Source: Desulfatiglandales bacterium
GTDB taxonomy: Bacteria > Desulfobacterota > DSM-4660 > Desulfatiglandales > Desulfatiglandaceae
NCBI GenBank assembly: GCA_963666345.1
Contig: OY762721.1
Coordinates: 2,304,001-2,368,000, forward strand
Length of the DNA: 64,000 bases
Direction of reading: 5' to 3'
Position numbers and translations under genes: made by a program. A model generated the notes under the pieces. It had not been told where the DNA came from, searched no databases, and worked only from the letters and a program-made list of their open reading frames with translations. This document shows, one piece after another, positions 48,666-53,095 of this stretch (within the stretch, counting starts at the first letter, position 1; every line of letters starts with the position of its first letter).

Positions 48666-50078
48666 ATGGCACTATCAAGCGCACTCTTTTCAGGAATCAG
48701 CGGGCTCGGCACCCTTGGAAATGCCATGCAGATCATCGGTGATAATATCTCCAATGTAAACACGGTAGGATTTAAGAGCAGCCAGTTTACCTTTCAGGAT
48801 CTCCTGAGTCAGTCTGTCGCTACCCAGTCAGGGACATCACAGATAGGAAGGGGAACCGCCATCGGGGATATTTACGCCTCTTTTGAGCAGGGCTCCTTTG
48901 AGACTACCGGCAGCAACACTGATCTTGCAATCGGCGGCGAAGGATTTTTTGTTTTAAGGGAGGCCGGAAGCGAAAGTCTCAGTTACACGAGAGCCGGCAA
49001 TTTTCGCCTTGATAAGGATGGTTACCTGACAAATCCTGAAGGCTATATTGTTCAAGGATGGGAGCTGGATGCGAACGCGGACGACGTCGGCTCGGTTACC
49101 GATGTTTGCCTGAGTTCTTTTACCTCACCACCTCAAGAGTCCCAGGAGGTTGAGATTATCGTCAACCTCGATTCAGATGGCGGTGATAATTCCGCGGGAG
49201 CGGATGATTCTCTGTCCAGTACATGGGACGGAACGAATAGCACCCCTCTTGGCGAGACCTCTTATGAATACCAGACAACATTGAAGGTTTATGATTCCCT
49301 GGGAAGTACTCATGATATTACCCTTTATTTTGATAAGGCCGATACCGGATCGGCCTATGAGTTTATAATCACCTGCAATGCGGGCGAAGATAAAAGAACC
49401 GGTGCCTCCGGAAATCAATGGGCCGGATTGCTTGGAAGGGGTCTGATTCATTTCAACTCCGGCTCCGGAGTCATAAATGATATCGATATGTGGCAGATAA
49501 ACCCTGCCACAGGTGCCTCGGTAGCTCAGACAGAGGCAGGTGACCTGACAGAAGGGTTTTTCACTTTTGAGTCGGACTTTATTTCAGGGAGCCCTATGAA
49601 TATCGCACTCGATTTTGGTTCACATTATGATGGAACCAGTTGGATGAATAATTCCCTGTCTACAACGCAGTTTGCAAGGTCATCAACTACCACATTCCAA
49701 TCAAGCGATGGTTATGGAGCCGGTGATCTGCAGGATATAAATGTGGATGTGGACGGCGTTGTAACTGGGACATACTCCAACGGACAGGTATTACCCCTTT
49801 ATCGGGTTGCATTGGCCAAGTTCCAGAACAACCTGGGATTGTATAAGGAGGGTGGAAATCTTTACAAGGAAACAAGAACAAGCGGGGCGGCCACCACGAG
49901 CAGTCCGGGAACTAACGGCCTCGGCAGTCTGGCTCCCAATTCTCTTGAGCAATCCAATGTCGATATCGCCAACGAGTTTGTCAGAATGATCACGACACAA
50001 AGGGGATTCCAGGCCAATTCCAAGATTATCACGGTAACAGACCAGATGCTTGCGGATCTCATCAATCTGAAGAGGTAG
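48666..50078 (+). CDS. flgE: Hook protein
   Basis: GDNISNVNTVGFK, YTRAGNF, YDSLG and LEQSNVD...QRGFQANSK. Confidence 0.97.
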   Translation: MALSSALFSGISGLGTLGNAMQIIGDNISNVNTVGFKSSQFTFQDLLSQSVATQSGTSQIGRGTAIGDIYASFEQGSFETTGSNTDLAIGGEGFFVLREAGSESLSYTRAGNFRLDKDGYLTNPEGYIVQGWELDANADDVGSVTDVCLSSFTSPPQESQEVEIIVNLDSDGGDNSAGADDSLSSTWDGTNSTPLGETSYEYQTTLKVYDSLGSTHDITLYFDKADTGSAYEFIITCNAGEDKRTGASGNQWAGLLGRGLIHFNSGSGVINDIDMWQINPATGASVAQTEAGDLTEGFFTFESDFISGSPMNIALDFGSHYDGTSWMNNSLSTTQFARSSTTTFQSSDGYGAGDLQDINVDVDGVVTGTYSNGQVLPLYRVALAKFQNNLGLYKEGGNLYKETRTSGAATTSSPGTNGLGSLAPNSLEQSNVDIANEFVRMITTQRGFQANSKIITVTDQMLADLINLKR

Positions 50079-50252: not shown

Positions 50253-50268
50253 TGGCACAAAGATTGCT
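50253..50268 (+). promoter_or_regulatory. sigma54 promoter of motA operon
   Basis: TGGCACAAAGATTGCT. Confidence 0.85.
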
Positions 50269-50322: not shown

Positions 50323-51081
50323 ATGGATATTGCCACGGTTTTAGGCGTTATATCTGCATTCGGCCTTGTATCGGTTGCTATTTTCATGGGCGGTGGGATT
50401 CAGCTGTTTATAAATATTCCTTCATTGATGATAGTCGTTGGCGGCACCCTCGGGACGACGATGATTAATTATCCCTTAAAGGAGGTATTCGGTGTCTTAA
50501 GCGTTGTCAAAAAGGCCTTTCTTTCAAAGAAGGTCTCCGCAGACGATCTCATCAAAAAGTTCCTGAATTTTGCCGTTAAAGCCCGCAAAGAGGGCATTTT
50601 GTCATTAGAAAACGAAATTAAGGACGTTAATGATGAATTTCTGAAAAAGGGAGTGCAGTTATCCATCGACGGATTGGAACCCCAGGAGATCGGCGGTCTC
50701 CTGGAGACGGAGCTCGAATTCATCAAGGCCAGGCACCAGTTAGGGGCGGAAATCTTTACCACCATGGGGACATTCGCCCCTGCCCTCGGCATGATCGGAA
50801 CCCTTATCGGATTAGTCCAGATGCTCCAGAGCATGGATGATCCCAGTACCATAGGCCCGGCAATGGCAGTGGCGCTGCTTACGACCTTCTATGGCTCCAT
50901 CCTGGCCAATATCGTTTGTATGCCCATAGCGGGAAAGCTCAGAACCAGAAGCAATGAAGAGTCTTTGCTGAAGGAGCTGACGATTCAAGGAGTATTGTCC
51001 CTTTCAAATGGCGATAATCCGAGGATCCTTGAACAGAAGCTCCATGCCTTTATTTCCCCTAATCAGAGGGAGTCTTATTAG
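50323..51081 (+). CDS. motA: Stator A subunit (PomA/MotP-like)
   Basis: ARKEGILSLE, APALGMIGTLIGLVQML and ALLTTFYG. Confidence 0.96.
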   Translation: MDIATVLGVISAFGLVSVAIFMGGGIQLFINIPSLMIVVGGTLGTTMINYPLKEVFGVLSVVKKAFLSKKVSADDLIKKFLNFAVKARKEGILSLENEIKDVNDEFLKKGVQLSIDGLEPQEIGGLLETELEFIKARHQLGAEIFTTMGTFAPALGMIGTLIGLVQMLQSMDDPSTIGPAMAVALLTTFYGSILANIVCMPIAGKLRTRSNEESLLKELTIQGVLSLSNGDNPRILEQKLHAFISPNQRESY

Positions 51082-51084
51082 ACA

Positions 51085-51851
51085 ATGGGTAGGAAGAAAC
51101 GAATAACGATAAAGGGGCTGAAACGAACGTAGGGGCACTTATGACAGTTTCCCTTTTCCTTATACTCCTGACCTTCTTTATCCTGCTTAACTCCATAGCA
51201 GTGTTGGACGAAAAGCGAATTAGACTTAGTATAGGTTCACTTATAGGGTCCTTCGGCAGCCTCAGCGGCGGTTTATCAGCATCTAAAGCAGGTGAACTGG
51301 CTCTTCCTCCTTCCGCCCCCATGATGGAAAAGGGATTGGCCATGAGTAAGTTATTATCGCTCATGAACAGGGATTTTGCGGACCAGATTAGGTTAGAAGT
51401 GAATGACGGAGAAGAAATGATAACCCTCAATGAAAAAATTCTCTTTGATAAAGATAAATCAAGACTAAGGACATCTTCATACCCTGCATTACGCTGTATA
51501 TGCGATTTAATGAAAAACGGGGATTATCCCGTGGAAATCCTCGGGCATACGGCCGGCATTCCGGCGGAAGAAAAGGGATATGAATCCAACTGGGAACTTT
51601 CCACTCTGATGGCGATGCAGGTGTTCAGGTATTTTACGGCAGTGGGAAATATCAATGCCGACAGGCTTGAAGCGTTTGGATGCGGCAGCCACAGGCCAAT
51701 TGCCTCTAATGATACAAGGCTTTCAAGGGAGAAAAACGCAAGAGTCGAAATTGTATTACATATTAATGCCCCTGCTTACGCCAGAAGAATTTTCATGAAG
51801 AAACCATCGGGGATCTTTACCTATAAAAAGTTTGACTTCAGGATTTTTTGA
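51085..51851 (+). CDS. motB: Atypical MotB paralog, no TM Asp; possible 5' frameshift
   Basis: TM SLFLILLTFFILLNS, plug, OmpA-like domain with GHTA and NWELSTLMA. Main ORF starts at 51141; an MGRKK start at 51085 is in another frame. Confidence 0.8.
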
Positions 51852-51854
51852 AAA

Positions 51855-52595
51855 ATGGCCAAAAGGAAGACAGATTTTTCAAACGGTCGAAGCCTGAATT
51901 CCGGTGCATGGCTGGTGACATTTTCAGACCTTATTATGCTTCTTCTAACCTTTTTTGTATTGCTTCTTACCATGTCCTCAATGGATACAAAATTGCTTAA
52001 AGAAACATTCGCCCATTTTAAAGGAGGCGCTCCCGGTGTGCTTGAGTTGGTTGAATCAAAAGAAATAGATGGTTTAGCCGAATTTATAACAAACTTTAGA
52101 AGTTCCGAGGGTTTATTGGTGCTTGACCAGGATCGCATTAAACGCCTTCTCATACCTACGGAAAAATCAGGTGAAAATGCGGCGGAGAGGGTAAAGAAAT
52201 TCTATGAACAGATCAAGATATCAGATGATGACAGAGGAATAGTTCTATCCTTTCAGGAAAATGTCCTCTTTGAATCAGGATCGGTCGTCATCAAAGAGGA
52301 CGCAGTGCCTTTTTTGAACTCAATGGCCAAGGCGATAGAATCCTGTTCCAATGATATTATCATTACGGGCCATACGGATGGTATTCCTGTTAAAACAGGG
52401 GCGTATCAATCAAACTGGCATCTTTCATTACGCAGAGGCCTTTCTGTTCTTGAATATCTTTTAGGTGATAGAAGGCTTCCTCCGGAACGTTTTGCTTTAG
52501 GGGCGTATGGTGCTGTTAAACCTCTGCATCCAAACAATTCTCCCGAAAACAGGGCGCTTAACAGAAGAGTCGAGATAATCTTTAAACATTTGTAA
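51855..52595 (+). CDS. motB: Stator B subunit (canonical)
   Basis: WLVTFSDLIMLLLTFFVLL, GHTD, NWHLSLRR and NRRVEI. Confidence 0.95.
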   Translation: MAKRKTDFSNGRSLNSGAWLVTFSDLIMLLLTFFVLLLTMSSMDTKLLKETFAHFKGGAPGVLELVESKEIDGLAEFITNFRSSEGLLVLDQDRIKRLLIPTEKSGENAAERVKKFYEQIKISDDDRGIVLSFQENVLFESGSVVIKEDAVPFLNSMAKAIESCSNDIIITGHTDGIPVKTGAYQSNWHLSLRRGLSVLEYLLGDRRLPPERFALGAYGAVKPLHPNNSPENRALNRRVEIIFKHL

Positions 52596-52606
52596 GGAGC
52601 TATAAT

Positions 52607-53095
52607 ATGGTGGAAGAAAATGATCCTAAAGAAGAAAAGACTAAGCGGTCCTTTCCTAAATTTGTGATTTTGGGAATCTTGGTGGTCGCTCTCGGTGCCG
52701 GTGGTTATTTTGGATGGAATATGTTTGTAGAGCAGACCAAAACCGAGAAACAAACGTCGGAGCATCCTCAAATAGAGGAGCAAGATAAGACCTCTGCAAT
52801 TCCTCTTGACTCCTTTATCATCAATCTCATGGATAAATCCGGATCAGGCAAAAGATATCTGAAGGTCGGGATAATCCTCGAGATCGGCGGGCAGAAACAG
52901 GGATCGGCAATTGAAAAATTCAAGCCACAAATAAGGGATACCATACTTCTTCTGCTTTCAAGCAAATCCTTTGGAGAGATCAGCACAATGGAGGGCAAGC
53001 TCGGATTAAAACAGGAACTCCTATCGAGGATCAATCAGATTTTGGGTGAGGTTATCGTTAGCAGGATCTATTTCACGGAATTTGTGGTGCAATAG
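52607..53095 (+). CDS. fliL: Flagellar basal-body associated protein
   Basis: TM, FIINL, RYLK, IRD and IYFTEFVVQ. Confidence 0.95.
   Translation: MVEENDPKEEKTKRSFPKFVILGILVVALGAGGYFGWNMFVEQTKTEKQTSEHPQIEEQDKTSAIPLDSFIINLMDKSGSGKRYLKVGIILEIGGQKQGSAIEKFKPQIRDTILLLLSSKSFGEISTMEGKLGLKQELLSRINQILGEVIVSRIYFTEFVVQ

Follow-up and report, generated by a model that had tools for sequence, protein, structure and literature searches.

An aspartate-free MotB paralogue encoded between motA and motB as a candidate partner of the canonical flagellar stator subunit

The window analysed here, a stretch of 64,000 nucleotides from the genome of a Desulfatiglandales bacterium (contig OY762721.1, positions 2,304,001 to 2,368,000), encodes a flagellar stator locus in which one motA gene is followed by two motB-type genes on the plus strand. 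The first of these, motB' (51085..51851; 255 amino acids in its true length, recognised by an OmpA domain and a family profile), specifies a MotB paralogue without the aspartate (Asp) essential to MotB, and the second, motB (51855..52595), specifies a canonical stator B subunit with Asp25 (GAC 51927-51929), GHTD, the helix-motif Arg and NRRVEI. MotB' is old, syntenic and under purifying selection, and is therefore a working protein. The best reading of its role, held with a little less than even confidence, is a mixed MotA5-MotB-MotB' stator with a single ion-binding Asp. A preliminary description, made from the letters of this DNA alone, had named the two genes MotB1 and MotB2 and noted one MotA with two MotB proteins; this arrangement holds across the genome, a single contig of 4.16 Mb in which tblastn detects one flagellar-type MotA and MotB_plug matches fall only in the two tandem MotB-type genes.

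Residues and motifs of MotB'

The membrane helix of MotB', MTVSLFLILLTFF, carries Ser (TCC, 51150..51152) at the position of the essential MotB Asp, which the MotB helix, TFSDLIMLLLTFF, encodes by GAC at 51927; both residues, as preliminarily described, are present in the translations. The two helices share an LLTFF core and are identical at 9 of 20 positions by manual count on the translations. Overall, the proteins are 26% identical and alignable over the OmpA-like domain only, which is matched by Pfam OmpA (PF00691) at 2.4e-14 in MotB' and 7.2e-15 in MotB. The MotB_plug model (PF13677) reaches 53.3 bits on MotB and 16.8 bits (E 0.0052) on MotB', under its cut-off of 24, and the genome-wide search again places MotB' below the cut-off at 18.3 bits. 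The membrane segment and the full domain previously ascribed to the first copy are thus present as a helix and an OmpA domain, and the plug is at most suggested, by this sub-threshold match and by a helix predicted for residues 24-38.

The MotB' translation also contains the other features named at the outset, namely GHTA, NWELSTLMA, NARVEI and an aromatic C-terminal tail ending in GIFTYKKFDFRIF. The Asp of GHTD and the Arg of NxxLSxxRA bind peptidoglycan, as known from OmpA-peptide complexes such as 3td5, and MotB' in the window has neither of these two residues (GHTA for GHTD, LMA for RA). The tail (51804..51848, plus strand) is predicted to form a β-hairpin with strands at residues 225-228 and 231-234, at a predicted local distance difference test (pLDDT) value of about 70-75. 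In a search of NCBIfam run with the relative P0002, in which most matches are limited to the OmpA part, none of the curated MotB, MotS and MotD models scores above its cut-off, in keeping with the source names 'OmpA family protein', 'chemotaxis protein MotB' and 'hypothetical protein'.

Conservation and selection

A scan of close relatives, restricted to one genome per species, yields 26 loci. All come from metagenome-assembled genomes, whose labels are with few exceptions Desulfobacterales, Desulfobacteraceae or 'Deltaproteobacteria'. Within contig reach, the order flgE-motA-motB'-motB-fliL-fliM is found in 26/26. Ser occupies the Asp site, within an open frame of 255-260 amino acids, in all 25 loci that contain the motB' N-terminus, the 26th (L026) holding the last 66 residues of MotB' only, and the second copy carries Asp in all 26. 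By tblastn identity to the window, MotB' exceeds MotB in 21 of the 25 loci, matches it in one and falls below it in one, the remaining two comparisons being unusable with a split MotB match. As a separate observation, the canonical motB is split or cut by masked bases in two loci, L014 (3773-4478) and L019 (3818-4314), both of which have an unbroken motB'; faulty assembly is the probable cause.

Residue counts over the best 120 family clusters extend this pattern. The Asp site is Ser in 105 clusters and Cys in 15, and Asp in none; in place of the Arg of NxxLSxxRA, 115 clusters have Met, and a single one retains Arg. GHTD keeps its Asp in 117 clusters and has Ala instead in three, the window included, and NRRV keeps its first Arg in 114 and has Ala there in two. 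The only losses that run through the family are those of the helix Asp and of the NxxLSxxRA Arg, the latter to Met, and GHTA and NARVEI are peculiar to a small lineage. The relative P0003, 75% identical to the window MotB', has both GHTA and NARVEI in an intact frame, and the window copy therefore belongs to a small sub-lineage with greater loss of the wall-binding motif. The initial proposal that exactly the functional residues had been lost accordingly survives for the Asp and one Arg across the family, and does not extend to the Asp of GHTD or the Arg of NRRV.

The aromatic tail also runs through the family, with its Tyr, Phe and Phe invariant in 120/120 clusters and the terminal Phe present in 116/120. 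The membrane segment LFLILLTFFILLNS is invariant across 13 aligned members whose identity to the reference falls as low as 54%, and in the same alignment the Gly/Ser-rich linker that follows the membrane helix is conserved, with G51, S52, F57, G58, S59, G62, G63 and S65 invariant. Within the linker, the segment IGSLxGxFGSLxGGxS (residues 31-46 of the 236-residue frame described below, approximately 51231-51278, after the plug-like helix) shows glycine-zipper-like spacing with eight invariant positions and low model confidence; judged by its sequence, this segment, which canonical MotB lacks, may serve in binding or in membrane contact.

Selection was measured as the ratio of non-synonymous to synonymous substitution rates (dN/dS) by the Nei-Gojobori method (NG86) over 15 pairs. 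MotB' ranges from 0.11 to 0.54 with a median of 0.25 (14 pairs with a value, one pair being identical), MotB from 0.12 to 0.72 with a median of 0.19 (15 pairs), and MotA has a median of about 0.09 (15 pairs), which makes MotB' comparable to MotB and FliL. Between the window and its two nearest relatives, the rough values are 0.17 for MotB' and 0.38-0.41 for MotB. The conservation and dN/dS check named in the preliminary description for recognising a strain-specific, neutrally evolving duplicate therefore gives the opposite picture: the copy is syntenic, free of the Asp in all 120 clusters and under purifying selection.

Reading frame and start of motB'

The frame called in the window for the first motB-type gene runs from 51141 to 51851 and encodes 236 amino acids. 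Nearly all relatives are 255 amino acids long, 19 more than this frame, and begin with a Lys/Arg-rich N-terminus such as MGRKKRN. In the window, the ATG at 51085, 3 nt past the motA stop, reads MGRKKR and terminates after 15 codons, and the frame of the 51141 product reads NNDKGAETNVGAL directly upstream of its own ATG. Contigs of the runs X1 and X4 contain one extra A behind 51101 and are otherwise identical across 2273 bases; the evidence consists of one contig from each run rather than raw reads, and X1 may be the source sample, so that independence is incomplete. The extra A restores a single frame, and the real motB' is therefore an intact gene of 255 amino acids at 51085-51851, which moves the start from the earlier 51141 to the ATG at 51085.

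The simplest reading of these frames is that the 236-residue product stems from a homopolymer error, a missing A near 51101-51103, in the deposited assembly. A pseudogene or a programmed frameshift at the start of motB' was also considered and is ruled out by the extra A in the X1 and X4 contigs. At 51100-51104 of the window, a short A-run is one A short, which splits motB' into a 15-codon stub and the 236-residue frame. Further homopolymer errors may occur elsewhere in this one-contig genome.

Predicted structure and pairing with MotB

Comparison of the family profile with solved structures gives the MotB chain of PDB 6ysf as the best match (1.1e-30). The aligned region starts with the membrane helix (profile position 27) and closes with the OmpA-like domain, and no solved chain matches the profile past position 234 of its 255. 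Together with helix prediction, this alignment gives MotB' a single N-terminal membrane helix homologous to that of MotB. The AlphaFold2 model of MotB' (mean pLDDT 76) contains helices at residues 2-21 and 24-38, a linker of low confidence at residues 36-66, an OmpA-like domain with pLDDT of about 85-94, a short helix at 212-218 and a terminal hairpin at 225-234. Foldseek matches the model to PA0833-PD, MotS, DVU_2228, PomB and Helicobacter pylori MotB, with target-normalised template modelling scores (TM-scores) of 0.72-0.86 for the MotS, PomB and MotB domains, and matches in the ESM Atlas are to generic MotB/OmpA clusters only.

Pairing was predicted for the periplasmic MotB'-MotB pair alone, with MotB' residues 56-236 and MotB residues 60-246. 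The pair scores 0.80, and none of three controls exceeds 0.07; the 0.80 mark is attained by 116 of 157 solved complexes and by 2 of 215 mismatched pairs, counts that are rough because own alignments were used. Across the pairing runs, contact agreement is at least 58% and partner pLDDT at least 76. On the MotB' side, the predicted interface comprises the helix containing NWELSTLMA, a strand (residues 177-182) and part of the C-terminal extension (residues 210-221).

The wider Asp-less clade

Searching 1.84 billion cluster representatives with the family profile gives 206 matches at E of 1e-30 or lower. Among the best 150 of these, 118 are no longer than 330 amino acids and have a recognisable helix motif; 30 carry Asp at the site and the other 88 lack it. 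Before correction, the Asp-less set comprises 58 representatives with Ser, 22 with Ala, four with Gly and single cases of Leu, Val, Asn and Pro. Four of these (P0130, P0132, P0147 and P0172) were mis-registered by the regular expression and are Ser by eye, bringing Ser to about 62 and Gly to about 2. By a crude test, the aromatic tail is present in none of the 30 Asp-bearing and 32 of the 88 Asp-less representatives. Many Asp-less representatives without the tail retain canonical GHTD, NWELSxARA and NRRV, so that the loss of wall-binding residues reported for the window copy is a feature the wider clade mostly does not share.

The gene neighbourhood was followed in 20 wider loci, which are the best matches from a 401-genome sample of the window's phylum and form a biased sample because they were picked as best. 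The first gene behind motA is Asp-less in 19/20, with Ser in 13 loci, Ala in four, and Asn and Gly in one each, and carries Asp in the remaining locus; wherever the sequence extends to the next gene (18 loci), that gene has Asp. The frame from flgE to fliM is unchanged and motB' is intact in these 20 loci. A quick maximum-likelihood tree unites 27 of the 30 first copies and nine Asp-less representatives in one group, with a support of 98 in the Shimodaira-Hasegawa-like approximate likelihood ratio test (SH-aLRT). The three exceptional first copies (Asp, Asn and Gly) cluster separately (91), and their partners join a canonical representative (99); this separate grouping provisionally suggests a second, independent duplication. 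The three loci concerned, L041 (1046-1783), L043 (682-1455) and L046 (3668-4759) in strand-oriented coordinates, are tandem MotB pairs from two other families of the phylum, whose first copies differ at the site (one Asp, one Asn, one Gly), possibly an independent duplication caught at differing stages of Asp loss.

The window holds one member of a widespread and apparently unpublished family of Asp-less MotB proteins, and its sub-lineage adds the aromatic tail and a degraded wall-binding motif. Full-text literature searches, which do not cover subscription-only journals, found no description of an Asp-less MotB paralogue, in agreement with the first observer's remark that none had been seen.

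Proposed mechanism and alternative explanations

In the mixed arrangement, MotB' would be a working stator B paralogue that conducts no ions and is made together with MotA and MotB from one operon. Its membrane helix would take one of the two central positions within the MotA pentamer, most likely beside canonical MotB, and its OmpA-like region would supply the second periplasmic domain, paired with that of MotB. The MotB-like and nearly invariant character of the helix argues that MotB' may occupy the place of a B subunit in the MotA pore, and the Ala and Gly residues at the Asp site in the wider clade argue that no ion is bound there. The Gly/Ser-rich linker and the C-terminal aromatic hairpin would serve positioning or anchoring, and peptidoglycan binding by MotB' itself would be little or none in this lineage. 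We infer binding of MotB' to MotA, its pairing with MotB in the cell and all functional consequences from these features. A more specific and rather improbable version is a natural one-Asp 5:2 motor, MotA5-MotB-MotB', in which only every second 36-degree step would be ion-driven, at approximately half the ion cost per revolution and with lower torque, forming an economy gear with MotB' as a fixed anchor held through its hairpin tail.

Several points weigh against a mixed stator. The asymmetric A5-B-B' unit suggested in the preliminary description fits the near-invariant helix, the 6ysf profile match and the pairing score, but contact of MotB' with MotA is itself inferred, and the same three results do not tell this unit apart from separate dead units or a brake. 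Solved MotB, PomB and MotS structures exist, and the pairing score may therefore reflect mere likeness to them. Current rotary models alternate two Asp residues. Asp32 mutants of E. coli MotB are reportedly non-functional and dominant-negative (a finding attributed to Zhou et al., 1998), and from such behaviour a one-Asp unit would be expected to stall. Moreover, MotB' lacks the W..TF motif that precedes the MotB Asp, its MotB_plug score lies under the Pfam cut-off, and no NCBIfam MotB model passes its cut-off for the MotB' family, the best being NF006508 with 113 bits against 259. The phylogeny is a quick tree and is provisional, and the dN/dS values of the window pairs are rough because their dS is about 1.

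The alternatives can be ranked against these data, with mixed MotA5-MotB-MotB' first, MotA5-MotB'2 units second and a scaffold outside the ring third. In the second of these, MotB' would build its own non-conducting MotA5-MotB'2 units, which would rival MotA5-MotB2 for places at the rotor as a brake, placeholder or fixed strut and would set the number of engaged active units. MotB' holds all the parts of MotB bar the Asp (the MotB-like helix, the plug-like helix and the OmpA-like domain), a single MotA serves both proteins, and the dominant-negative effect reported for the E. coli mutants is how a natural brake would act. Such units are nevertheless unlikely, as a permanent inhibitor made from the same operon, three bases from its neighbours, would waste MotA, nothing hints at separate regulation of motB', and pairing is predicted between the periplasmic parts of MotB' and MotB (0.80 against 0.07). 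Somewhat doubtful as well is a role outside the MotA ring, as a periplasmic scaffold around the stators in the manner of MotY, PflB or FliL, or attached outside the pentamer like TolA or TonB, with the aromatic tail and the conserved linker binding another motor part. The hairpin and Gly/Ser-rich linker are conserved and unmatched in MotB and among solved chains, the whole family has lost the peptidoglycan-binding Arg so that the domain may bind something else, and fliL directly follows motB. Against this role, the membrane helix is recognisably that of MotB, with the LLTFF core and the same Asp at its periplasmic end, and its near invariance would be expected of a helix packed closely within the MotA pore rather than of an anchor exposed to lipid. 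Such a helix is not known in MotY-type proteins, and the NCBIfam MotY model gives 32 bits on the MotB' family against a cut-off of 400.

Two further explanations carry much less weight. MotB' might still carry ions, with Ser or Cys in a water- or Na+-mediated path and both central subunits active; Ser and Cys are polar, and MotA is nearest to Na+-type PomA and MotP, yet members of the wider Asp-less clade also have Ala (22 clusters) or Gly (about 2) at the site, residues incapable of binding an ion, and the invariant helix offers no substitute carboxylate, leaving this reading very improbable. That MotB' is a decaying duplicate or pseudogene has a negligible probability. The window copy is frameshifted near its start and has the two additional losses GHTA and NARVEI, but the frameshift is missing from the X1 and X4 contigs, P0003 shows the same two replacements in an intact frame, motB' is intact in the 25 close loci with the N-terminal region and in the 20 wider loci, and dN/dS on the window branch is 0.17. 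As far as sequence analysis allows, decay is refuted by the conservation in 25 loci and 120 clusters, the X1/X4 frame and the dN/dS values.

Comparison with known systems

Canonical MotB, PomB and MotS in MotA5B2 units, for example Clostridium sporogenes MotB (6ysf), resemble MotB' in having the gene directly after motA and in an architecture of a single N-terminal helix with the LLTFF core, a following helix, a linker and an OmpA-like domain. MotB' differs from them in the absence of the helix Asp (0/120) and of W..TF, in a MotB_plug score under the cut-off, in the change of the peptidoglycan-binding Arg to Met in 115/120, and in its extra conserved linker, its aromatic hairpin and the canonical MotB always encoded alongside.

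The nearest published arrangement found is the motA-motB1-motB2 operon of Aquifex aeolicus, in which the N-terminal and membrane regions of MotB1 and MotB2 are 97% identical, one residue apart, with 23% identity between the periplasmic regions (Takekawa et al. 2015, PMC4525482). In the same study, chimeras that joined the N-terminal membrane region of either Aquifex MotB to the periplasmic region from E. coli supported slight spreading of E. coli when combined with MotA (PMC4525482). From the near-identical membrane regions so reported, both Aquifex proteins would carry the Asp. The two systems are thus alike in having one motA followed by two motB genes in an operon, with very different periplasmic regions; in Aquifex, as described there, the membrane helices of both copies are near-identical, whereas here the first copy is Asp-less.

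In the Myxococcus gliding motor, AglR with AglQ and AglS combines one MotA/TolQ-type protein with two distinct MotB/TolR-type partners, and a review states that whether AglQ and AglS form hetero- or homodimers is unknown (PMC9389320). As portrayed there, the system shares the one-A, two-B composition and differs in not being flagellar. The AglR-AglQ-AglS proteins are not known to have OmpA-like domains. MotY resembles MotB' as an OmpA-like domain in the flagellar motor that takes no part in ion conduction. It is secreted, is not known to have a MotB-like membrane helix, and is not known to be encoded between motA and motB.

Organization of the locus

The stator genes lie in a flagellar block on the plus strand of the window, comprising fliK, flgD, flgE, motA, the motB-like frame, the second motB, fliL, fliM, fliN and fliO-R. 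Upstream is flgE (48666-50078, plus strand), followed by motA (50323..51081, plus strand; 252 amino acids; Pfam MotA_ExbB 2.5e-31), the genome's only flagellar stator A subunit. The gaps between motA and motB' and between motB' and motB are three bases each, and fliL (52607..53095, plus strand), the next gene of the conserved block, is recognised by Pfam FliL (5.2e-26) and synteny.

A sigma-54-type -24/-12 motif, TGGCAC-N5-TTGCT, occupies 50253..50268 on the plus strand, 55 nt upstream of motA, and is the sole exact match in the window, with 0.03 expected. The same exact motif occurs in 19 of 46 related loci, in 18 of which it lies within approximately 330 nt upstream of motA and on the motA strand. 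The consensus applied here is that of sigma-54 promoters, and the motif is a putative promoter. From the three-base spacing of the three stator genes and the motif upstream, MotA, MotB' and MotB are very likely made together. The block of stator, fliL, switch and export genes is probably an RpoN-dependent unit, judging by this motif.

Four genes of the MotA_ExbB family occur in the genome, three of them too divergent for detection with MotA. These three, at 2010331-2010651, 4139817-4140176 and 635725-636081 of the genome contig, lie in open frames of 266, 203 and 212 amino acids; they are presumably of the TolQ/ExbB type, and none is near a MotB_plug match. The top NCBIfam models for MotA are PomA (294 bits, cut-off 341) and MotP, and the best full-length NCBIfam alignment of MotB is to MotS (8.1e-42), under that model's cut-off. 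With MotA nearest to Na+-type PomA/MotP and MotB nearest to MotS among full-length matches, the stator may be sodium-driven, which would suit the marine-sediment runs in which the sequence occurs.

Implications

Current models of the flagellar stator, ExbBD, TolQR and Zorya place two identical subunits with alternating aspartates at the centre of the complex. A large and old lineage nevertheless keeps an Asp-less subunit of the central type in its core flagellar operon under purifying selection. The protein is at present annotated merely as 'OmpA family protein' or 'MotB', and its gene is overlooked or truncated where a homopolymer error breaks the start, as in this assembly. If MotB' pairs with MotB, it would provide a natural asymmetric stator and a direct test of whether one ion site suffices; if it forms units of its own, it would be a built-in brake or spacer. 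Were the one-Asp motor true, the two-Asp alternation of current models would not be obligatory, and an economy gear would suit energy-limited anaerobes. Either way, a standard motor part would have a previously unrecognised partner.

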